NCBI RefSeq assembly: GCF_035594765.1 | Contig: NC_085841.1 | Span: forward strand, 242,130,689-242,194,688 | DNA: 64,000 bases | DNA from: Anolis carolinensis | Lineage: Eukaryota | Direction of reading: 5' to 3' | Shown here: positions 7,780 through 58,900 of the stretch, in pieces | How the letters are laid out: every line of letters begins with the position of its first letter | Position numbering within the stretch: the first letter of the stretch is position 1 | Made by a program: the position numbers and the translations under genes | Notes under the pieces: generated by a model | The model's database searches: none | What the model was told of the DNA's origin: nothing | What the model saw: only the letters and a program-made list of their open reading frames with translations

Positions 7780-8071
7780 GGAAATAGATACATTATGTAA
7801 CAGGATAAAAATCATACAGCAAGGAATGGATACACATGTAGTAGTTAGTTACTTGAGTTTTGTCTTTGGATATTTAAACCTGAAAATGATGAAATTATGC
7901 AGATTTCCTTTTTCCAGGCCAGCAAAAATAGAGAATGTTGAAATGACCAAAGTCTCCTTTGTTTTGAGCCCCACCTGGGGCCATTTCTCAATGTGAAACA
8001 ATCGCTGGATAATTTGCTTCCTGACCTAGATCAGGTAGAGGTTAATGTTTTTCGGTCCCAGAAATAAAATA

Positions 8072-8397
8072 AAAGGCAAAGGTTTCCCCTGACATTAAGT
8101 CCAGTCATGTCTGACTCTGGGGGTTGGTGCTCATCTCCATTTCTAAGCCGAAGAGCCAGCGTTGTCCGTAGACACCTCCAAGGTCAAGTGGCCGGCATGA
8201 CTGCATGGAGCGCTGTTATCTTTCCACCGGATTGGTACCTATTGATCTACTCACATTGGCATGTTTTCGAATTGCTAGGTTGGCAGAAGCTGGAGCTAAC
8301 AGCGGCCGCTCACACCGCTCCCGGGGTTTGAACCTGGGACCTTTCAGTCTGCAAGTTCAACAGCTCAGTGCTTTAACACATTTTGCCACCGGGGCTC
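8072..8397 (-). mobile_element. Sauria SINE, full length
   Basis: tRNA-like head, diagnostic ggctcttcggcttagaaatggagatgagcacc, ACCTTT-type tail; flanked by agaaataaaata direct repeat. Confidence 0.92.
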
Positions 8398-8869
8398 ATA
8401 GAAATAAAATAGAACATGTTTAATAGGTCTATAGGAATAAAGGTGGGATAAAATACACTTTATAGAAGGGAGAGAGAGATCTGGGGGTGGTGGAAGGCCT
8501 GGGAGCTTTATGCAAAAGAGAGGATGCCACTTTATCTCATTATGGCTTATTGTCCTTGGAAAACCATAAATCCTTTTTATTAGGGGTGGGGGTAGTTGTG
8601 TTCAATAACAGAACTTGATTCATAGGGACGGACCTTGGTGATGTTATTAAATTAATGCACTAAATCCCCCTCCCCACACACACACACTGTGTTTAACCTA
8701 ATGAATTCATGCATTGCCAGAGTGAGGAGCATCCCTATAATGTACTGAACTGATCCATGCCTGAATTCTACACTTACCATTTACTCCAGGGACAGCAAAA
8801 CTTTGACTGCACTGAGACCAAAGTGCCTTTCTTTGCTTCGGCTCAGCAGCTATTTGAGCCCCACTTTTG

Positions 8870-9091: not shown

Positions 9092-9637
9092 GGATGATTC
9101 TGGCTTGATCTGACCTAGAGCATTTTATTGCCTGGGATGGAGGAAAAGATGCACCCCCTTTCCCATCCCCTGTACAGAAGTCAGATGGATTACTTATTGA
9201 ATATTCCTTCAGAACTGGCAATAGGATATTGCATTTCACCACGTTTGAAGCAGCTCAGTTTAGGCGCTCAGGGGAAGTTGTGCGGCATGTCCTCCAAAGG
9301 AAAGGAACAACAGACATTTTGGAGAAATATGCAAGAGTCTTTCTCCACTGCCTTTCAGCATTTATAGCCTTCAGGTCTGCCTACTATGCCCAGTGGTAAG
9401 GCTAGTCCTGATTTTAGCTCCTTTTACATGGGTAAGACTGAAGCTAAGAATATGTATAGGAACAACACATTGATGTGTTGGGAACAACGGATGAATGCAA
9501 TAAGTGTCAGGTATAGCGTCTAAAAAACTCAGAGATTAAAGTTAAGCTGCTACAACTTTCAGATGAGATAATCATTACCAGACATTACAAAAATATATCC
9601 GAGTCTGGTGGTCTTCATTTGACAGAAGAGGATAATA

Positions 9638-9950
9638 CAGTAGAGTCTCACTTATCCAACACTCGCTTATCCAACATTCTGGATTATCCAATGCATTTTT
9701 GTACTCAATGTTTTCAATATATCATGATATTTTGGTGCTAAATTAGTAAATACATTAATTACTACATAGCATTACTGCGTATTGAACCACTTTTCCGGCC
9801 AGATTTGTTGTATAACATGATGTTTTGGTGCTGAATTTGTAAAATCATAACCTAATTTGATGTTTAATAGGCTTCTCCTTAATCTCTCCTTATATTCGCT
9901 TATCCAACGTTATGCCGGCCCGTTTATGTTGGATAAGTGAGACTCTACTG
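9638..9950. mobile_element. Tc1/Mariner-superfamily MITE (CAGTAGAGTCTCACTTATCCAA TIR)
   Basis: 22-bp TIRs, TA on both sides. Confidence 0.92.
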
Positions 9951-10916
9951 TATGTTGCTCTTGCAGGAGGGAGGTGGAAGCTGTGTTCTCTGGCTTGGTG
10001 GGGGAAAGTAAGCAAACACATAGTTATATATTGTCTATTGCAGGTATCAGAGGGAGAAGGCAAGAGCCTGGTGCACGTCACCTTTGGAAAAACCTCCTGG
10101 CACCCGGGATGTGTGTGTAAAGAAGCCTGTCCTTGGGGATAATCTGGGGCTTTGCTTTCTCTTATAATGTCTTGGGACTTGGGAAGGACTGCCCTAGGTT
10201 TGCCTTCCAAAAAATGACTGGCCAAGGTCCTTTCTTCCTATGGTGGTCTTGGCATCAGGAAGAAATGGAAATCCAGAGAGCGCAGGCCAGGGAGATGGGT
10301 ATTAAAAACCCTTGCTCTTCCCTATTTCTACCCCACCCCCCACCCCACCCCGTCATTTTGGCTCTTTAAAAATCATTGTCACACTTAATCTATAATTAAT
10401 TAATCAATCCTGCATTCCTTTGCAAATTTCTTCTGTTCTGAGAAGAAAGCTGCAAGAAGGGAAGTGTTTGAATCCCGTAAGGAATGGAAAGCTGTGTGGG
10501 TGGGGTTCTTAAAGAATATCAGTTGCAGTAACTTACAGAGCCTCTTGGGATGAGAGCACATGTGCCATTTAACTCTCGGTAAGTGTGCATGACTATCCTC
10601 AGGTTATGATAGGGCAAGTCCTGCAATAACCGTTTCTTGACTAAACAGAAATCCTGCCACTTAAGGATTTCTACCTTCCCTTTTTTCTTCTACTCCTAAG
10701 ACAGGTTAAAACTTGATCTAATCTAATCACTGTCAGTCCTCTGTCTAATTGCAATAATAGTTTCCTGGAAGTTTGTGAATCTGCGAGGGGGTTGCATCAA
10801 AATGTAGGCAAACAATTTCTCTGGTCTGCAAAAATGTGATTTTTAAAAAGAAAACCAACACCCTAACTCTTATTTTTGCAGTTCATATGTGGCAATTCGC
10901 AGCCATCTGAAAGATA

Positions 10917-11145: not shown

Positions 11146-12427
11146 GACCACCAGTTAATGAAAAAAGTTTTTTTAAATAAACAAGAATAAACCACTACTA
11201 TAAATTTAGAAAGAAACATAACTTTGGGATTAAACATAACTATAATAGGATTAATCTTATTCTGATTGTCTAAGTGTTACTGTATTAACAAGACTTGCAT
11301 TTCCTTTGATGCTATATAAGTACAAGTGCACCAGGATCCAATCCTCCAGAAAGGAATGGGATCAGCATTGTGTTCATATAGTGCTGATATTTCTTTTCAG
11401 TGGGAAAAAACAGTGTTTGGCTTTTGAAGTACTACATAAAGCTCTCAAAGGCAGTGTCAGCCAAATGGCTTGGGATTTGCAGGTCTCTATTTTGTGGGCT
11501 TATCTGCAAATTAACTTTTAAAAAGACAACTTTTTTTTTTGCAAATTTTACATTTTCTAGGTTTTTAGAATTATCCAGGTTGTGTTTTGATATTTCACAC
11601 AGAATGAATGCTCATTCTTCTCTTTAAGCTATTTTCGATTCATGAGTGATGAGGTCTCTCAACTCTGATTTATTTTCAGTTCTTCTTTCATGTTTCATGG
11701 TCACCGGATTCAGATGTTTTCTTGACTGCTTCAAAAGTATTATTGAAAACAGTAGCACTTCACATTTTTTGCAACTACCATCCAACATACTCATTGAATT
11801 CCAGTATTGCCTTGATATCCAAATTCTTCTGTTACTGCTGTGATGTTACACATTTAAGATCTCCCAGCAATTTCAGCATCATTTCAGTAAGAAATGAAGA
11901 AGAACAAACCTACTAATGTGGTTGAGTAAGTCTTAGCTGACCACATTTTTTCACAAGGCACAGATTTGCCCTGATTATTAATTTGAGGATGGAAAGACGC
12001 AATTATTTAAATGTGTCATCATTTATGTGCCTTATATCTTGAGAAAGAGGTCTGTTCACAGAAAAACAAAGGTAGTCATGCTCATGACACAGATTTCCCC
12101 ACAAGGCAGTTAAATTGTGAGTTGCTTCACGTGTGATGTAAACAAAAAAGTCACAGGAACAGAAAGAGACAGGAACAGAAAGAAGTTAGTGACCTCCTGC
12201 ATGCCAATGAAAACAACTAACTTTGTTACAAGTTAGTTTTAGTCAAAAAGAGTATAGGTAAATTAACTAAAACATGGAAAGGAGAATAATGTTAGAAGTC
12301 TAAGAAACATGTTTGTAAAAAAGCATAGAAATTTTGGTTAACAATCAGTACAACGATACAGGAGATTTTGAAAACAGAAATAACATTCAGACAATATAAA
12401 GAAGGGAAAAGGAGATTGTGAATATAA

Positions 12428-12752
12428 AAAGGTAAAAGTTTCCCCTAATATTAAGTCCAGTCATGTCTGACTCGGGGTTGGTGCTCATCTCCATTTCTAA
12501 GCCGAAGAGCCAGCGTTGTCCATAGATACCTCCAAGGTCATGCAGCCGGCATGACTGCATGGAGCGCCATTACCTTCCTGCCAGAGCGGTACCTATTGAT
12601 CTACTCACATTGGCATGTTTTCGAACTGCTAGGTTGGCAGAAGCTGGAGCTAACAGCAGGCGCTCACTCCGTTCCCAGGATTTGAACCTGGGACCTTTTG
12701 GTCTGCAAGTTCAGCAGCTCAGCGCGTTAACACACTTCACCACCAGGGCTCC
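12428..12752 (-). mobile_element. Sauria SINE, full length
   Basis: Same family as 8072-8397; gtgaatata direct repeat on the flanks. Confidence 0.92.
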
Positions 12753-12857
12753 TAATGGTGAATATAGATTATGATATATAAAGAAATACCATATTTTTCG
12801 CTTTATAAGACGCACCTGATGATAAGACGCACCTAGTTTTCAGAGGAGGAAAATGGG

Positions 12858-12947
12858 GATGCCACATTTTTTAAAGGATTTAATAACCGTTTCATCCTTC
12901 ACTAACTGCCATGAAGACTTCACCCACTCGCAGAACTGGGCGATAGT
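12858..12947 (-). pseudogene. pogo-family transposase C-terminal remnant (30 codons)
   Basis: Minus-strand translation [30 protein letters not shown], the W-V-x-x-x-W...KSFKKCGI motif that follows the DDD domain of pogo/POGK-like transposases; not in the ORF track. Confidence 0.85.
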
Positions 12948-12948
12948 T

Positions 12949-13263
12949 CTCCCTGAAGTGGCGGATGACGGCCAGCGTGTCGCGGTGGGTGAGGCTGCTC
13001 ACCGGGGTGCCGTTCACCTCCAGCAAGACGTCCCCTGGCGCCGGGGCTTTCCCCGAGAGCAGGACCGAGCCGGGAGTGCCGCCCGAGGAAGAGGAGGTGG
13101 CGGGCGAAGGCTCGGAGAGGCGGGCGCCGAGGTAAGGGAACTCTCCGCGCTCGGCGCCGCCGTGGAGGAGCTCTGGGTCCGGCCCGCAGCCGCTGCCCCA
13201 GGACACAGCGCACTCCTGCACCTTGCTCAGCCAGTGCCGCTTCCTCCGCAGCGTCTTAGACAT
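12949..13263 (-). pseudogene. MAGI3: Captured MAGI3 exon 1 fragment (N-terminus and most of PDZ0)
   Basis: [22 protein letters not shown]…[12 protein letters not shown]…[36 protein letters not shown] matches the recalled MAGI3 N-terminus; similarity ends abruptly after RHFRE; no further MAGI3 exons recognised in the window. Confidence 0.92.
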
Positions 13264-14559
13264 GAGGCCACACCATGGGCGACCCTCCGCCCGTGAGGAG
13301 GACGAGGAGACGACGGCGGCACCACTCTCCCGAGTACTCAGTCAGTCAGTCACTCGTCCGGCTAGTTCGCCAAGCGCGCACCCCTCTGTTTGCGTGTGCG
13401 CGTGCGTGCGCGCTCTCCCTCTTTCTTTCCTCTCTCTCCTCGCCTCGTGAGGTCATATTGCGTTTATAAGACGCACTGACTTTTCCCCTCTATTTTGGGG
13501 GGGGAAAAAGTGCGTCTTATAAAGCGAAAAATACAGTACATCTTTACATTTACTATCTTTCCTTACAATAAAGTAATCGATGTAGAGAGGAGGACTGTCA
13601 TAAATAATTTAGCATACTGCAGTTAAAGAAGTTAATTTTAATTGGCGTGGGGATAGGAACAATGTTTATTATTTTAGATAGATATTGTTCATTGTTTGGA
13701 GAGTTATTGCCTGTCTATTGTTTCTTGTAATTTCAGCATTGCATCCGACATTAAAATATATAAATAACAATATTTAAACAGAAACATGAAGAAGCAAGTG
13801 ACCTTCTGCATGCTAGCGATAAGAACTAACTTTTCTACTAGTTAGTTCTTTACAAAACCCTCAGGTCAAAATTGATACAGATAAAAGCTCACATTAGTAC
13901 AAATATGTTTAAAAGGTAACACAAAACTAATCTGTCCGTAACATTAAAATCAATTAAGAGCAAACTCATTAAAAAGCAAAAAAGTGAACATTATTAAAAA
14001 GCCCTTAACCCCTTCCCTCTAATTTCCTCATCTTTCATTCATCTCTTCCTGGAAGTAAAGCAAGTAAATATGTTCCAAGTAAATTTGTATGCACTTCAAG
14101 AACAGCCTCCAGGAAGAAAATTAAAAAAAATATTGCAGGAAAACAGGAAGATAACAGGTACTTCCAGATGAAACTCTGCTTTTTGTGTGTGTGCAGTCTT
14201 CCTACAATAAAATTAAAATTTTAAAGATAAAGAAAAATATTAATTAGACACCCCTTTTCTGCCTTTTCCTTTTTGTTCTTTGCTGCTCTACCCACTGGTA
14301 TTACTGCCCCCCAAAATCCTCTGATCAGGACAGTAAGGGAGATTGTGAAAGGATGAGGGCAAGGAAAAACAGAGCTAATCAAAATATTGTTTCTTCATAT
14401 TTGTTCCTTCATACTCAAAATTCCCTGTACATTACTTTAGACTTCATTTTGAAAAAATAAAATCCATAATTTTAACTCAAAAGTCCCACACTTTCTTTTT
14501 TATTAGAACTGCATGCTTAGCAATGAGTAGTGGCATTCTTAAAGAGCATAAATATCCTA

Positions 14560-14760: not shown

Positions 14761-15188
14761 CAGTAGCATTCTTCCTATAATTCTTTCTTAGTAAAGTGTA
14801 TGCTAAGAATGACTAGAAGTCCTATGTATTTCATATAAAGGTCCTATGTTGGAAGAAAAGTGGATTTTTAATTAAATGCTTCAATATGAATGAATACACA
14901 TTTAAACATACAAATAAAATTATTGCTTGGAAAGAGTGCCATTACTCATCCAATATAAACTAAAACATTAATTTACTATGTACAGGTAAGAATGTAGCTC
15001 ATCTGATTTCTTCATCTTCTGGATTGCATTGTGTAATTCACAAAATTCAAGCCATCTAGTCCAACTGTAGATTTGTCTGTTTTAACCCACAGGTTTTTAT
15101 AATTCATCTGTAAATCCTTGAATTTAATGTAATTGGTTATTAATGTCTGCTTTGGCTTCACACACAGGTTGACTAACAAGAATTTAAG

Positions 15189-16268
15189 ATGGAAGATACC
15201 TGGACATTTGATGGGAATTTGTATGAGCTCTTTGGAAATTATAATTATGTTTATGAAAATACAATCGATCCTAGCGGTGTGTCAGAACCCTGCAGAGCTG
15301 AGGCTGCATCGCCTGTGATCAGGTACTTTGTGGCCTTCCTCTATTGCCTGGTGTGCTTACTCAGCCTGATAGGGAATGCCTTGGTGGTTTTGGTGGTTGC
15401 CTACAACAAACGGAATCGGTCTGTGACTGACGTGTACCTCCTGAACCTAGCCATTGCCGACCTCCTCTTTGCCCTCACCTTGCCCATCTGGGCTGTCTTC
15501 CGTGCTCATGAGTGGATCTTTGGCACTGGCATGTGTAAATTCACTTCTGTCCTGAAGGAAGTCAATTTCTACAGCGGAGTCCTCCTGTTGGCTTTCATCA
15601 GTGTTGATCGCTACCTGGCAATAGTGTATGCTACCCGTCATGCAACTGAAAAGAGGCACTGGGTTAAATTTGTCTGTGTTGGCATCTGGGTGTTCTCTCT
15701 TCTCCTTTCACTGCCTATGATTACCTACCGTGAAGTTTTCTATGCACCTAATTCCTCTTTGAGAGTTTGTTATGAGAATATTGGAGGCAATGAAACATCT
15801 AAATGGAGAGTGGTGCTGAGAATCTTGCCTCAAACATTTGGCTTCCTTGTGCCTTTGGCCATCATGCTTTTTTGCTATGGGGTAACGGTGCATAGACTCT
15901 TTCAAATGAAGAACAATCAAAAAAAGAAAGCTATGAAAGTCATCCTGGTTGTGGTGCTGGTCTTCCTCTTTTGTTGGCTGCCTTACAACATCACCCTATT
16001 TGCTGATACCTTGATGAGGACTGGGGTTATTACTGAGGAGTGTAAACGCCGTGGTATCATTGATGCTGGTCTTTCAGGCACAGAGATCCTGGGGTTTTCT
16101 CACAGCTGTATGAATCCCATCATCTATGCCTTTATAGGGCAGAAGTTCCGGAATAACTTCCTCAAGATCCTGGTTGAGAGAGGCATCATCAGTAAAGAAG
16201 TCCTGATTCGGTATCGGAAAGGCTCTTCCTTCTCATCTACATCTGGCAACACCTCCACAACTCTATAA
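15189..16268 (+). CDS. CXCR2: C-X-C chemokine receptor type 1/2-like (IL-8 receptor), copy A, 359 aa
   Basis: 7-TM class A GPCR; [57 protein letters not shown]-terminal STTL; splice acceptor cacacag| at 15167/15168. CXCR1 versus CXCR2 orthology cannot be resolved. Confidence 0.95.
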
Positions 16269-23700: not shown

Positions 23701-25067
23701 AAGAACATCAGTGTGCATATGTCCCAGTGACGGTCTCCAAATTCATTCTGTGTGCAACCAATAGAAACTGGGCGACCTGCTTATTGTAGGCTCATAATAC
23801 CAGAATCATTGATTAGAACATCTTCATTTTTGCTCTTTGCTGAAATTCATCTGGGCACCTCCAGCAGGATTTCCTTCATAGTAAACACTATAGTCTGAAT
23901 TTGAAAAAGCATTCTTTTTGGTAGGGGTCTTGTTGGAAAATGAATCAGATGATTACCCTGTTATTTTGAGTTCCATAGTTCAGACATCGTTGAACAATGA
24001 CTTGCTTGTATTCATCATCAGGATTCAAGGAGCTGTAGTTTTAAACTGTTTTTAAAATGCTCATTCTCTGTCAGAATACAAGAGAATGATTTCCCTTTTA
24101 ACATGTTTAAAATAGGTTTATTCATTTTTGAGTACTATTTACAATTAAATGGGAAGGTTATCTTGCAACGGTTAGCCAGGTACAAAGCCTGCGAAGGGTT
24201 AAAATAACAGAATTCAACCTAGAAAGGAAACAGAAAGGAGGAAGTAGCTGGATTTCAGAGAAAGTAGCTTCAAGATCGTCTTTCCTTTTTGGTAACTAAA
24301 GAGCTTTTTCTTCTTTCTTTCTCACTCTTTTGGTCTTTTAGCGATGGAGACAGATGGGAATGATCGAGGAAGCTACAAAGGAAAATCTGCAGACTGAACC
24401 CCAAAGAGGTATGACCAACTGGCATGTAGGTAGATTAAATGAGGACGTTCTCTTTGCCCTACTTCTTTGTATATTTTGAAAAGCTGTTTGTAGATTAGGT
24501 ACATAGTAATGATTTGCAATGAAAGATGATGCCCAAGGAAACATTTTATTGCATTTGCACATGGTAAAGTTGCTCGTAACTTCTGGAACCTTCTACCGAA
24601 TGTACTTTCTCCCTCTTTTTAATAAGATATCTCTTGAAGCTTTTTAAGGGAGAGAGATGCATACATTTAAGACTTCAACATCAGTTATTTGAGGGTACCT
24701 ACATTTGGGAGGGATAGATTTTAAAGTTGAATTGAACACCTGGAAAATTTAATATCTGTCTCTGTTAAAGGAAATAATTTTTGGGAGATATTTTACAGGG
24801 AAGAGGATACCTCTGTCTCTTTGGGTGCTAAGGGTGCATTCTATTGGTAGAGACAACAGTAACCAGTCCAAGAACAAAAAAATGTACTTTGGGAATTCCC
24901 AGGAAACAAAAAAAGAGATCTGAAGGAGGTTTTGTGGCCCCACAATCTGCACTGCCATTGTAGAGTGGTGATTCACCCTAGATGTACTATGACTTTTTGA
25001 TTTTGATTCATTTGTTCATTAATTTTCTGTTTGGTTTAACACTCTACACAGGTCCAATACTTCCAGG

Positions 25068-26147
25068 ATGGGTGATGTCCTGACCTTTGATGGGGATATT
25101 ACTGAATTATTTGACTATTTAAATTACTCTTACGAGTCCACACTCAACCCTGACAGTGCACCAGGACCCTGCCGACCTAAAAGTGCATCAGCTCTGATCA
25201 GATACTTTGTGGCATTCCTCTATTGCTTGGTATGCTTATTCAGCCTGGTAGGAAATGCCTTGGTGGTTCTGGTGGTCACCTACAACAAAGGAAACAGGCC
25301 TGTGACTGATGTGTACCTCCTAAACCTAGCCATTGCAGATCTAATCTTTGCCCTCACCTTGCCCATCTGGGCTATTTTCCGAGCTCATGAATGGATCTTT
25401 GGAACTGCCATGTGTAAAATCATCTCAGCCATGAAGGAAGTCAATTTCTACAGTGGAATCCTCTTGTTGGCTTTCATCAGCATTGACCGCTACTTGGCAA
25501 TAGTGTATGCTACCCATCATGTTACTGAAAAGAGACACTGGGTCAAATTTGTCTGTGTTGGCATCTGGGTGTTCTCCCTCCTCCTTTCATTGCCTATGAT
25601 TACCTACCGTGAAGTTGTCCATGCACCTAATTCTGCTCAGATGGTTTGTTATGAGAATATTGGAGGGAATGAAACAACTAAATGGAGAGTGGTGCTGAGA
25701 ATCCTGCCTCAAACCTTTGGCTTCCTTGTGCCTTTGGCCGTCATGCTTTTTTGCTATGGGGTGACAGTGCATAGACTTTTCCAGATGAAGAATAATCAGA
25801 AAAAGAAAGCTATGAAAGTCATCCTGGTTGTGGTGCTGGTCTTCCTCTTTTGTTGGCTACCTTACAATATCTCCCTACTTATTGATACCTTGATGAGGAC
25901 CAGAGTCATTGCTGAGACCTGTGGACTCCAGGATGCCATTGATGCTGCCCTTTTAGGCACAGAGATCCTGGGGTTTTCTCACAGCTGTATGAACCCCATC
26001 ATCTATGCCTTTATAGGGCAGAAGTTCCGAAACAACTTCCTCAAGATCCTAGTCACACGAGGCATCATCAGTAAAGAAGTCCTGATTCGTTACCGGAAGG
26101 GCTCGACCTTCTCATCTACATCTGGCAATACCTCAACAACACTATAA
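25068..26147 (+). CDS. CXCR1: C-X-C chemokine receptor type 1/2-like (IL-8 receptor), copy B, 359 aa
   Basis: Same motifs as copy A, intact ORF, acceptor ctacacag| at 25051/25052, C-terminal STTL. Symbol is nominal; the two copies look like lineage-level paralogues. Confidence 0.93.
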
Positions 26148-52900: not shown

Positions 52901-55900
52901 CCTCACCGGCTCAGCTGCTCCATGAGATGCTTTGTAGTGTCTGCCTTGGCTGCTAGCTTTTGCTTTGCATGTTGAACATCATTCATAATTTTGTCCAGAT
53001 GGCTATTCAGACACTGAGAAAAAAAGATAAAGTTTGGGAGAAGCAGAAAAAAAATCACTGTTATGCAAGTGAGGGAGACCAGGTGCTTTTTTCCAAAACT
53101 ACATGCTTTCTGTATCTTGAACTGGTAACAGCTGATCTTTGATTTGTCTTCAGTTCCCAGATGCCCTAGCCAACAAGGCTGGAGATTGTGGAAGCTCAAA
53201 CACCTTGGTCCTACAGAACTTTCAAGAAGCTAAAAAGAAACAAACTGGAGTTGCATCTACAATATAAATTTATTGTAGTTGGACACTACTTTAACTGCCA
53301 TGATTTAATCCTACTTTGGTTTCTCTTCAGATCGTATAAATCTTTCGCCTTTTACTAAAGATTTCTGTGGAGAGGAACATTCAGGAGTTTGTAACCAATT
53401 GTTGAGGCTCTGTTGAGGCCAGGTTATAGCACAGCTGGTTAATCACCAGCAGCAATAGATCACTGCCGACTGGAAAGTGGGAAGCTTGAAGCCCTAGTCG
53501 GATTGAGCACCTGATTGCCAATAGCCTAGCTTACTGTCCATCTCAGTTCGAAAATAGCTGCAGCTGTGAGTAGAGAAATTAAGAAGTTAATTTAATTTAC
53601 AACAGCGGGGAAGTTAATTTAAAACTGCCAGTGATCAAAGAACAAGGAGGAAATACTATTATCAAAAAGGACTCAGCATCATAGTGGATAAAGCAAGAGC
53701 TCCCCCTGTGGCCGGAATTGAGCATAACCTCCAGAAATTGGAAAATGTTACATTACCTCTATCTGTCTGTATGTGTTGTATGTCTAAAAGCAGCATTGAA
53801 TGTTTGCCGTGTATACGTGCATTGTGATTCACCCTGAGTCCCCTTCGGAGTGAGAAGGGTGGAATATAAATACTGTAAACAAACAAACAAATAAATAAAT
53901 AAAGTGGAGTTGCAATTTTATAAGGCCTTTATGCTTCTCACCAAGCTATAACTTCCATGACCCCATAGCATTGTGTCATGGTAGTTAAAGTAGTGTTAAA
54001 CTGCATCATTCTATACTGTAGATGTACCCTAGATTAGACCATCCAATCTAGTATCTTTTTCAAAGTATATTTATGCAAAATATTTATTCTGAAAATAACA
54101 CATCAAGACAATAGCAGATCTTGAAAAAATTAATTGGCATTTTTTTAAAAATCCCTGAATCCCACAGGCAGCATTGCCACAAAGTAATCTTAATCCTTCT
54201 AGACAAGTCCTGCCCCCTATATTCTATAAAGCCCCAGGCTTTATATGAGATATTTTTCATAATTTCAGTCTGATTTGCACAGAACCACACTTACTGTTTT
54301 GTTATATATTCATTTAGTTTAGAAAAATATTTTTGGAACTTGTCACAATTATCCCAGGTTTAATGCCACCTGAAAACTTGTTCTCTCATGTTATACCCTC
54401 AGCGCCAGGTATTTTTCTAATTATATTAAGCAACACTAATCTCAAAGCTTGGTTTACTTCCCTGTGCTATAAGACTTGCCTATTTACTTTTTACAGCATG
54501 TAGTTCAATTTCTTAATTAATTGAATGCATTCTATATAGAGGTCCTGCATTTCCACAGAGTACCAGTGCAGGAATGTTGCTTCCAGTGTGGCCCAATATT
54601 TTATTCCACAGAAGAAGGATGGCAGTTACAGATGGTGCTCTGGACTAGAAATACCGTATTTCCTAATATCACTTAACAACATACTGTACATGGAACAGAA
54701 GGCTCCTACCTTTCCATGGGTTTGATTTTCATGCTTGTCACAGCTCACTTTCTTGACAGCGTTTTCCAAAGCTTGTGGCATACCAACTGGAAGAATGTCC
54801 ATTAGTTGTGGCGTTGCCACCCCAGAGCTGTTTGCCTCTGTGAGGATTCCCCTCTCCTTGACTGGGACCCTGGCTTTCTCATCTCTGGTCTCAGGTTCTA
54901 GTGTCAGCACATTGCCACAAAGAGGAATGCTCTTCTCTGTGGACCATTCCCAGTATTGTTCCAGTTCTTCACTCAGCTTCTTTGCTATGTCAGTTGCTTG
55001 GTTTTTCTCTTGTTCTAGTTGGCCCACACGAGTTTTCAGTTGTAGACACTCCTCTCTTAGGGCAGAGGCCACAATTTCATTTTTATCCTGCAAGGTTTTC
55101 TGTAGTGCTTGGCTGGTGGCCTTCCCATTCTCCAGCTCACTTCTAAGTTGGGTGATCTCCTGGATCTGTCCCTTCAGGGCAGCAGTAGTGCTCTCTAAGT
55201 GCTTTGCCAAAGCCTCTCTTTCTTCAAGGCCTTGCTGCAGAGTGGCCTGGAGCTGCTTCTTCTCCTCTTGAAGCTTAGCAACCTCTTTTTCAATTGTTCC
55301 TATCTGGCTGACTGATTCCTGTCTGATTCTTTCACACTGGGTCCGCTCCTCAGCTAGTTGATCAATCAGCTGTGATTTCTTTTGGGCCATTTCTTCTAAC
55401 TGAACTTTCAATGTAGTGTTTTCCTTCAAAACCACCTGAAGCTGGTTTGTCTGGGCCTGTAGGTCATTTTGCAAGCCTTGCAATTGCTCTTCCTTGTCTT
55501 TTAGGACCTTCTCTGTCTTCTGAAGAGACATCTGGAGAGTAAAAATATGTTCTTGACACACTGACACTTTCATCTGAAGGTCCTGAGCTTCTAATTTTGT
55601 TAACATGAAGCTATTCTCTTGTGAGATGAGAGTTTCTGTGAGAGTCTCCTTCTCCCTTTCTAGCATCTTTATCTCAGCTAGCCTCCTCTCCAGTTTCTCC
55701 CTTAAAAGACCCTTCTCTAATGCTGTCTCTACTAGTGTGTCATTTGTCCCTTCTGACTGTGCCTCACTGGTTTCCAGTTGGCCATGATGGCTGCTCAGAG
55801 CAGCCACTTGGGTTTCCCATCTGTCCAGACTCTTTTCACACACCTTTAGTTTTTCCTGCAGCCCCTGACATTGAGAGATCATTTGCTGGTGCTTCAATTC

Positions 55901-58900
55901 TTGAGTCTCCTTTTCTGCCAGGCACCTTCTCCATTCTGCCTCTTGAGAACTCAGCCTTTGTTCTGCCTCCTCAAAACGCCTCTCAGCAGCATCTTTCTTG
56001 GCCCATGCCTCCTGGCATTCAATGGTCAGGTTGGCAATCTTGGATTCTGCCTCTCTGAGGGATTTTACTACCTTGGACAGCTCTTGCTGCTGTTTCTCCT
56101 GCTCATTCATTTTCTCCTTCTGTTGTTTTTCATGCTTGGCTAGCTCCTCTTTTAGAGCCTGATTCTCCTCTAAAAGGGCTTGCTTCAGATACTTGTTTTC
56201 TTCTTGTTGCTGGGCCATCTTCAGCTGCAAAGCACTAAGTTCCCATATCATCGCTCTCAAATCCTTCTGCTTCCAGCAGTCCTCATTTTCAGATGTCACT
56301 TGTGGATCCTCCATCTTTTCACAGAGGAAATGTTCAGGCTGAGAAAGCAGGGAACTAAGATCTTGGCTGGAAGAGACCTTGCCTGGTTGCTCCTTACTGA
56401 ATTTGTCCACATGGATCTGTGACTCACCATTTCCCCTCTTCACTTCCTCAACAGAAACTGGATGCTGGGCTTCCTTTTCCATAAAAGAACTCAGCTTTAC
56501 AAGAGAACCCATCTGTAGCAGACTGTTCTTTCTGTTTCTCCAGACTCCAACCCACTTTTCTATTGAGTGCTCCCATCCAAGTCTGACTGGATCATCATTT
56601 GTTGACTGAGGAACATATAAATCTTTGGTTCGTAATGCATTCTTGTGGGCTTGGGTGGCTTCTTGGTTGCTTCCTGGACTGTGATTTGAGTTCCTAACCT
56701 ATGAACAATACACAAATAAACAGTTTGATATGTAGAGTTGTTATCATATTAGGTGCTAGGAAATGCAAGAAAAGCAGTGAGTGCTGGAGTTGGTCCATGA
56801 ACAAAAGCTGGGCCTTATATGTCTTATCATGCATTGACACTAAACAAGAAACACTAAAGAAAAACAACTACATGACAAATGAGATCTTGAAGAACAACCC
56901 AAAGGTTGCCAGATCATAAGAACAATCTTCCATGTCCACACACCATTTTTATGTAAGATAGGCTGAAAAAGCAATGGTCTAACTTGGAAGTGTCCTCATA
57001 GTACTTTTTACAAACATTCCCTTTTCTTTCACCAGGGTAAGTTCTGCATAGAGCTTAGGAACGTTACTTCTTCTGGACTACTACTCAGAAACTTCCAACG
57101 AGTATGGCCAGCCAGCATAAGCACTACATATTCTGCCTGGAGGATTCTGTCAGCACCAATCCAAAAATAAAACAAAATTTCCCAAGGTCTAGTTCTGCAA
57201 GGGCTGAATTATGGAAAATATTACTGGAGAGTGATGACTGGCTACAACTCATGGCATCTTGAGAACACTTCATCTTATACCCAAGTTTGCAGCTGTTTCT
57301 ACAGCTTCCTTTTTTTTAAAAACGATGTGCGAATATATAAACACACATGAACTAATTCTGAAAGGGCAAGAAACCTGACAAGAATTTGGAGAGGGACAAA
57401 GCATATAGATAAACTAGCTCTCAATTTGCTTGTGTGTCTCTCACACACATACTCAAGTTGGACTCATGCTGTGCATTAGGAACTCATGAGGCACTCTTTC
57501 AATATTACAAGATGGTAAAAGTTCTGGAAACCAAACTATGAGGAACTGCTTAGGAAGCTGGGTGTGTTTATCTGGGAGAAGAGAACTGGGCTGCAGTGGT
57601 GCAATGGATTAAATCCTTGTGCTGTCTGAACTGCTGTTGCCAGTTCGAATCCATGAGATGGGTGAGCTCCCGTCTGTCAGCTTTAGTTTGCTGGGACATG
57701 AGAGAACCCTCCCAGAAGGATGGTAACATGTCCGGGCATCGCCTCGGCAAAGTCCCTGTAGATGGCCAATTTTCTCACATGAGAAGCAACTTGCAGTATG
57801 TTCTCAAGTCACTTCTGACACGATAAAAAAAGCCATCTTAAAGAGGCTGCTTCAGTAGTAACCATTTTGGATAGAATCTGGCCTTTTCAGTTGTGAGAAC
57901 TGAAGTGGTCAGAGCTGTGGGACATTTGGATTTTCAGATGCTTTGACCTCTAGTGCTGATCGGCCCCACCCAGCAAGCCAGTGGCAAAGGATTGGGGAAT
58001 TATAGTCCAAAACATTTGGAGAGCCAAAGGTTCCCCTCTGTTGCAATAGAGGCTGTGGTTCTCACACTGACTTTCACAATATCTCTATGGAAATCAAGGT
58101 TATCAGATCACCTCTATCTTGGGATGCAAGGTAAATTGATACAGGGAAAACTCAGACTCTGTGAGCTGTTTCTCAACACAGAATTCTAATGTTATGATTC
58201 CACTTTAACTGCCTTGGCTGCATTATATGAAAATCTGGGGTTTGTAATTTGGTCAGAAACACCAAGGGGTTCTCCCTGAATTGAAAATTCCTGAGTTCTA
58301 TGGGATAGAACCATGGCAGATAAAGTGGAACCATAGTGTCATAACTGTATAGTGTGAAAGGTGCACACAAATGATGTAAAGCTATTGTTGGGATCTTCCA
58401 GCAGGGAGTATCTTGCTATGTAATAGAACAGACAGGGAAGTGAAAGCCACATACCTCAGAAGATTCATTCTCTGCATTGGTGTGCTTGGCAACTGGGATG
58501 GAACGTTGCGGCAAAGCCCTAGAAAAAATAAATATCAAATCTTCAGTCATGATACTGACTGAAATACATGATATTTCATCTCACTCCTCATGACTATCTC
58601 ATATGTTTTCTGAAGGAAGGACTGTCTTTGCATGCTGCATACCTGGACATGGTTTCCATGGATAGAGATTTTCCTGGGTAGAAGGCAATTTTCATCATTC
58701 AAGTTATGTTGTGCTACAACTGTTGTGAGGCTTAGCTAACACAAACAATGCTGGGAGAATCATGGGAGTTACAGTCCTTGGAGGGCCATAAAAGCCTACC
58801 ACTTAGACTACTATCATGGATGGAATTGTATCTTCACCCACACTACACATTTATAGCACTCTTTTTCCACTTCAGTTACCAAGGGTCCATCCTAGAGAAT

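Follow-up and report, generated by a model that had tools for sequence, protein, structure and literature searches.

The window, the 64-kb stretch of Anolis carolinensis DNA that was analysed, contains a TA-flanked element of 748 bp (12789-13536) with 27-bp inverted ends, in which DNA of the host gene MAGI3 is joined to the remains of a transposase gene. The features identified are as follows.

12787..12788, no strand: TA target-site duplication; the empty-site joint 12786->13537 is present in one contig of run X14
12789..12859, minus strand: right end of the Passer element, with the TIR at 12789-12815 and a subterminal repeat; its identity to the autonomous copies, over their terminal 71 nt, is 97%
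12858..12947, minus strand: transposase remnant of 90 bp, from the part that codes for the C-terminus; 94% identical to positions 2217-2306 of the L043 element
12892..13263, minus strand: chimeric ORF of 123 aa, with its ATG at 13263 and its stop at 12892-12894
12948..12948, minus strand: single A at the join, present in neither donor by three-way alignment
12949..13447, minus strand: captured MAGI3 DNA, 499 bp (5′UTR/exon 1); 97.0% identical to positions 2337-2835 of L045
13446..13536, minus strand: left end of the element, with the 27-bp TIR at 13510-13536 and a subterminal repeat
13537..13538, no strand: TA target-site duplication, the other flank of the element

The join between MAGI3 and the transposase was found as an earlier note on this DNA had described it: the MAGI3 codons (...RHFRE) end at 12949, position 12948 is the A, and from 12947 to 12858 the minus strand reads in the frame of the transposase (ACT ATC GCC...). 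The MAGI3 cargo is CpG-island-like and comprises about 185 bp 5′ of the ATG and 105 codons of exon 1. Its source, L045, lies on a separate contig; the exon there matches MAGI3 entries of Anolis with 100% identity, and no TIR was found within the 14 kb examined. At the left join, the element and MAGI3 overlap by 2 bp (CG). The right TIR has one mismatch to the family TIR, and the 276-bp deletion between the transposase remnant and the right end is common to L002, L003, L145, L017, and L021.

Elsewhere in the window, two similar intronless ORFs of rhodopsin-family receptors (7tm_1) were identified on the plus strand at 15177-16268 and 25023-26147, which we take to be CXCR1/2-like. The first of these begins about 1.6 kb after the element. 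One MITE and two SINE-like repeat copies occupy 9636-9952, 8071-8400, and 12427-12754, one of the SINE-like copies adjoining the element; the TIR of the MITE matches TcMar-N7/N8_AC in Table 2 of PMC3014272. The window also has a 690-aa open frame of coiled-coil character at 54626-56698 on the minus strand and a GC-rich stretch at about 2000-2600.

It is hardly credible that the join, or the whole element, is an artefact of the assembly. The join is crossed by one 136-nt contig with no differences, with a short side of 30-31 letters that is at the limit of the comparison, and this contig comes from only one of the four runs examined (X1, which may be the assembly's own sample), as an artefact would lead one to expect. 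Against this reading, however, the TA duplication is clean, the copy has private substitutions, and contigs spanning flank and TIR were found in X1, X4, and X11 of the four runs. Moreover, the exact empty site is present in one contig of X14, and dozens of analogous elements exist.

The earlier note described the MAGI3 frame as reading through into the transposase DNA, and the resulting 123-aa ORF was indeed found. It consists of 105 MAGI3 codons, which encode a truncated PDZ domain below the Pfam cut-off, and 18 out-of-frame transposase codons. Relative to the parent gene it has 4 synonymous and 4 non-synonymous changes, and the window copy as a whole has changed at 10 of 126 CpG positions versus 2 of 373 others. 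A cluster of CCAAT and GC boxes, with four CCAAT boxes, lies 5′ of the parent MAGI3 gene, outside the captured piece. RNA-labelled runs hold 0.00-0.06 of the words of the window stretch, which proves neither expression nor its absence; the same is true of the contigs of X24, a run whose RNA label is a guess, which span a portion of a transposase copy with a frameshift. The ORF is likely non-functional, decaying junk, judging from its sequence. It would be very surprising if it were a new gene with a function or acted as a dominant-negative fragment of MAGI3. Such a role would be favoured by the open frame from the native ATG and by the receptor ORF 1.6 kb away, but the cut-short PDZ domain, the equal numbers of synonymous and non-synonymous changes, the CpG decay, the core promoter boxes left behind, and the empty allele all speak against it.

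The search with the transposase remnant found 12 places in the genome and led to L043 (G000:C5, about 203.75 Mb), an element of 2653 bp with the same 27-bp TIR and an open ORF of 422 aa. The pogo/POGK-like parent with the TIR CCGTATTTTTCGCTTTATAAGACGCAC which the earlier note had predicted is thus present in the same genome with a full transposase, and the window element is, as proposed there, an internal-deletion derivative filled with host DNA. The peptide on which that prediction was based is by itself less telling: its 31 aa have no DDE_1 match in Pfam (only DUF6794, E 0.1), but at the DNA level it matches the C-terminus of the full transposase over 90 nt with 94% identity. As the matching transposase has the same TIR, the prediction withstood the refuting condition set for it in the earlier note.

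The L043 protein is a single ORF within the 400-500 aa of Passer transposases, with a CENPB-type HTH domain (HTH_Tnp_Tc5, PF03221, E 1.7e-13) and a DDE_1 domain (PF03184, E 1.9e-30). Its catalytic residues are D171, D278, and D314 with a spacing of 35, which is the DD35D by which Passer is defined (PMC9976928). L043 and its family likewise have Passer-type ends, namely a short CCGTA TIR, a TA duplication, and a AAGTACTT-like target. No BrkDBD (N-terminal Brk motif) match was found in L043 at E<=0.001; many homologues carry PF09607. A second near-full copy, L044, has a stop and a frameshift, and among the copies seen L043 has the only open full-length transposase ORF. L044 and contigs of three runs contain one codon that L043 lacks. 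Row 332 of Table S1 in PMC9976928 lists this element, as Anca-Passer, in A. carolinensis with 423 aa, 3 copies of which 1 is intact, a TIR of 29/29, and TA/TA. As to transposition, the observations are the open ORF and one empty-site contig; the L043 transposase is likely working. The closest proteins are POGK-named transposases of frog, caecilian, and wall lizard (81-84% identical), and POGK-named relatives in other animals, 76-84% identical, include those of frog, caecilian, bichir, and tick. This distribution is a hint of horizontal transfer. A search for a host locus behind the GC-rich 5′ part of L043, in which 40 of 59 candidates were scored, found none; this part is treated as native to the element since the matching loci examined all carry TIRs.

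The earlier note had considered the window element alone; the element is real, but the large family with many cargoes to which it belongs had been missed. The family TIR has 397 matches in the genome at <=1 mismatch, and the reversed control has none. We estimate roughly 220 elements, a rough figure for which 89% of partner ends pass the TIR filter. The sample combined the search matches with 60 stretches, each around a further exact match to the TIR (from the first 100 listed), and gave 98 distinct two-ended copies. TA/TA flanks were found in 93 of these, and 96 contain at least 50 nt of filler that is not from L043. Their target sites follow AnnTAnnT, in 86 and 84 of 98, as in the AAGTACTT of Passer. 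The fillers sort into 31 groups, and modules recur in varied combinations, nested in one another as chimeras. MAGI3 coding sequence is carried by four copies on three contigs, and MAGI3 DNA also occurs in six chimeras.

A CpG-island-like 200-bp window was found in 58 of 70 fillers (those of at least 200 nt among the first 82 copies, two with LTR insertions excluded) versus 2 of 80 flank pieces, copies inside one filler group not being independent. By groups, 24 of 31 are CpG-island-like. When copies were picked by TIR alone, 52 of 61 had such filler, about 10 of them being short hairpin arrays without an assigned source. The present copies lie in ordinary AT-rich DNA, in which none of 226 flank bins is CpG-island-like. 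GC-rich members built of a hairpin unit are L059, L062, L077, L101, L108, L076, L079, L084, L098, L102, and L054, and the unit of the short members also caps the cargo-bearing L068, L074, and L111. L065 and L088 each have an insertion of a 6.3-kb LTR retrotransposon with long ORFs.

In total, 56 of the 98 copies were traced to nine host loci without TIRs; the cargoes to be traced were chosen selectively, favouring GC-rich ones with ORFs, and 42 of the 98 copies remain. These sources are MAGI3, ROCK2, PGRMC1, a LIM-domain gene, a homeobox (Hox) gene identified by translation, and four others, namely L148 and three that are presumably MICU3-like, AATF-like, and TRIM37-like. The labels HOXB2, LHX1/5, and OPCML/NTM-like are likewise presumptive. 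The peptides of L130 and L132 gave no useful match in PDB or Pfam. L026 and L136 were rejected as MAGI3 carriers, only the intron 1 repeat being matched, which lowered the traced count from 58 to 56 of 98.

No TIR and no element end were found alongside the nine sources within the 3.5-6.5 kb examined. Eight of the nine lie at apparent gene starts, the Hox cargo being a last exon with 3′ DNA, and every one is at a local GC peak. The cargoes of MAGI3 and of the L149 gene contain exon-intron borders, and the introns indicate that capture was from DNA and not from mRNA. Identity to the sources is mostly 88-98%; the PGRMC1 cargo is only 72% identical overall to its locus because of rearranged tandem repeats. 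In 12 cargo-parent pairs, 82 of 1208 CpG positions (6.8%) were changed versus 135 of 6190 positions elsewhere (2.2%). This excess fits methylation of the moved islands, after which the cargo likely decays. The LIM, ROCK2, AATF-like, and L148 groups have roughly 15-25 BLAST places each and are all GC-rich.

Several other arrangements were seen in the cargo. L053, L083, and L093 carry the start of the L149 gene, which we take to be TRIM37-like, as a 470-bp inverted duplication, so that a transcript would fold into a long hairpin against the 5′ end of the parent. Two other right breakpoints are also located at templates that are awkward to copy. In the L025 group, comparison with L148 places the right breakpoint at the start of a TAA microsatellite, and that of L026 is near the middle of a palindromic repeat family found in MAGI3 intron 1.

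The earlier note had further claimed that the join in the window preserves the junction at which MAGI3 was captured. Our comparison of the MAGI3 copies argues otherwise. The sister copies L002, L003, and L145 (the last 5′-truncated) share the capture but run on into the intron: they retain exon 1 in full, followed by about 130 bp of intron 1, and reach the transposase 16-18 nt further on with a 2-bp overlap. Compared with these intron-bearing sisters, the window copy has 159 bp less of MAGI3 and 16 more bases of transposase. The left join is also that of six more copies, in which 75 bp of the MAGI3 5′UTR is followed by PGRMC1 DNA and, at the end, by the same intron tail, 13 bp long. The nine two-ended MAGI3 carriers all have a derived A in the 5′UTR that is absent from the parent locus, which points to one capture. 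MAGI3 ends at one intron position in eight two-ended carriers and in L145, and the window copy differs; an inverted repeat of 172 bp has its apex about 5 bp from this shared end. The microhomology sought at the window join was absent, one inserted A being found instead. The alternative description of the join as a 2-bp AG overlap with a 3-bp deletion was unsupported by the other copies examined.

Since the sisters share the capture yet keep more MAGI3 and less transposase, the window join is probably secondary, formed inside one family copy, and not the capture itself; the order of events among the MAGI3 copies is given by parsimony. It may have arisen by deletion from a longer ancestor or by repair off a sister or autonomous copy, which fit equally well, and end-joining would then have sealed it with one added base. 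The opposite order, in which the window join is the original capture junction and the intron-bearing copies later re-copied more MAGI3 from the parent locus, is unlikely. It is in keeping with the transposase piece of the window copy, the longest among the four MAGI3 coding copies, and with the closeness of this copy to the parent outside CpG sites (2 of 373 changed). However, it requires a second visit to the parent locus, and nine other copies in two sub-lineages have one intron end with a 2-bp overlap beside the hairpin apex, whereas the window join is unique among the loci examined.

We therefore consider, with a probability of about 0.75, that the window element is a non-autonomous copy of Passer (pogo, DD35D) and that its family carries host DNA, mostly CpG-island gene starts, likely acquired by template switching and spread by the autonomous transposase. 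This reading is based on the shared TIRs, the TA duplications, the TIR-free sources, the exon-intron borders, the multicopy spread, and the nested chimeras. Under the proposed mechanism, broken or replicating element ends would switch template onto host DNA and then back, the filled elements would be moved on by the autonomous transposase, and later deletions and exchange of filler between copies would produce the mosaics. The 14 distinct joins, assessed by eye and without a shuffle control, comprise nine with 1-5 nt of overlap and five with 1-13 inserted nt. This anatomy fits template switching with end-joining and singles out no one repair pathway. Passer insertions in human cells have been reported to be biased to 5′ ends and TSS (PMC9976928), and we infer that insertion near transcription starts would set broken ends beside CpG islands and thereby cause the gene-start bias. 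The lack of an element end by any source in the regions examined, together with 0 of 226 CpG-island-like flank bins, argues against a simple local model of promoter insertion.

The main rival to this reading is that host DNA is captured without bias and that the fillers look GC-rich because of selection afterwards, with open, CpG-rich filler transposing or persisting better. We consider this improbable, though less so than the other alternatives. The large groups (LIM, ROCK2, AATF-like, and L148) are all GC-rich and amplified, as selection would predict, and bat Helitrons with 5′ cargo are also described at higher copy number (PMC4224331). On the other hand, most groups with one or two copies are also GC-rich (12 of 12+5 small groups; 24 of 31 groups overall).

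Capture of host DNA has been described in several transposon systems with which the family can be compared. Passer itself, in the description of Anca-Passer (PMC9976928), has the same right end, a transposase of about 423 aa with DD35D, a CCGTA TIR of <30 bp, and a TA duplication. The 3 copies listed there leave the roughly 220 cargo-bearing derivatives outside that account, and the terms non-autonomous, MITE, and gene fragment do not occur in its main text.

The window element fits the definition of a multicopy Pack-TIR: it has TIRs and a target duplication around non-TE DNA, a TIR-free parent on another contig, and copies at several distinct places. Breakpoint microhomology, another trait of Pack-TIRs, is absent at the transposase join of the MAGI3 window copy and 2 bp long at its left join. 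The Pack-TIRs of Tan et al. (2021, PMC8277862) resemble the present case in their host DNA, their GC-rich cargo, their insertion at several sites, and a parent that is distant and TIR-free; short microhomology is also described for them. Four multicopy cases in 100 animal genomes are reported in that paper, the example given having three copies; no Pack-TIR of either kind is listed for the lizard, and the lizard row of its library has no Tc/mariner consensus. In contrast to those cases as presented there, nine sources or more were traced here for a single family, whose groups reach roughly 25 copies, whose chimeras are nested, and whose autonomous ORF is open.

By analogy, the lizard family works like a Pack-MULE without being a member of that class, and can be seen as a vertebrate counterpart of the rice Pack-MULEs, since its members carry GC-rich host gene DNA, mostly starts. 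Pack-MULEs also form multi-gene chimeras. GC-rich genic cargo and multi-locus chimeras are both present in the lizard family, and long Mutator-like TIRs and the 8-11 bp duplication are not. Unlike a Pack-MULE, it is a pogo element with a TA target, a short TIR, a vertebrate host, and hundreds, not thousands, of copies. Rice Pack-MULEs are described as preferentially duplicating GC-rich gene DNA into GC-poorer sites, with flanks that are likewise ordinary and AT-rich (PMC5861414).

The Helitrons of vesper bats, as described in PMC4224331, are alike in their vertebrate host, in their bias to promoter, 5′UTR, first exon, and first intron, and in sequential capture. However, Helitrons are rolling-circle elements and have no TIRs, whereas the lizard family has TIRs and a TA duplication; it is a cut-and-paste element, so capture here cannot be terminator read-through. 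In the anole genome itself, hobo_AC (Novick et al., PMC3014272) also has extraneous DNA and inter-element recombination, but it is a hAT element whose filler is described as largely other repeats, in contrast to a Passer element with host gene cargo. Table 2 of that paper has 18 Tc/mariner TIRs, and the family TIR matches none of them. No account of the cargo of the family was found in the open literature searched, a scope outside which lie Repbase, Dfam, subscription papers, and bioRxiv supplements.

The join of MAGI3 to the transposase is real and ordinary by itself, and the family is the larger result. The way in which TIR transposons acquire host genes, and the reason for their GC-rich cargo, have been studied mainly in plants, and multicopy cases in animals are reported as very rare. 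In this family nearly every examined copy carries filler, and sources, intermediates, and a likely working transposase are found in one genome, which provides a natural junction series and a testable system. We tentatively suggest, at somewhat less than even odds, that this young Passer family, segregating and with an intact transposase, is the first vertebrate cut-and-paste transposon which normally harvests CpG-island gene starts by way of a promoter-targeting transposase, and that its nested chimeras bring together first exons from dozens of genes. If this is true, the long-unresolved capture mechanism of Pack elements could be reconstituted in cultured cells. The scattered copies of first exons, from genes with developmental and housekeeping roles, can lead annotation of the lizard genome astray, and they may seed new promoters or antisense RNAs.
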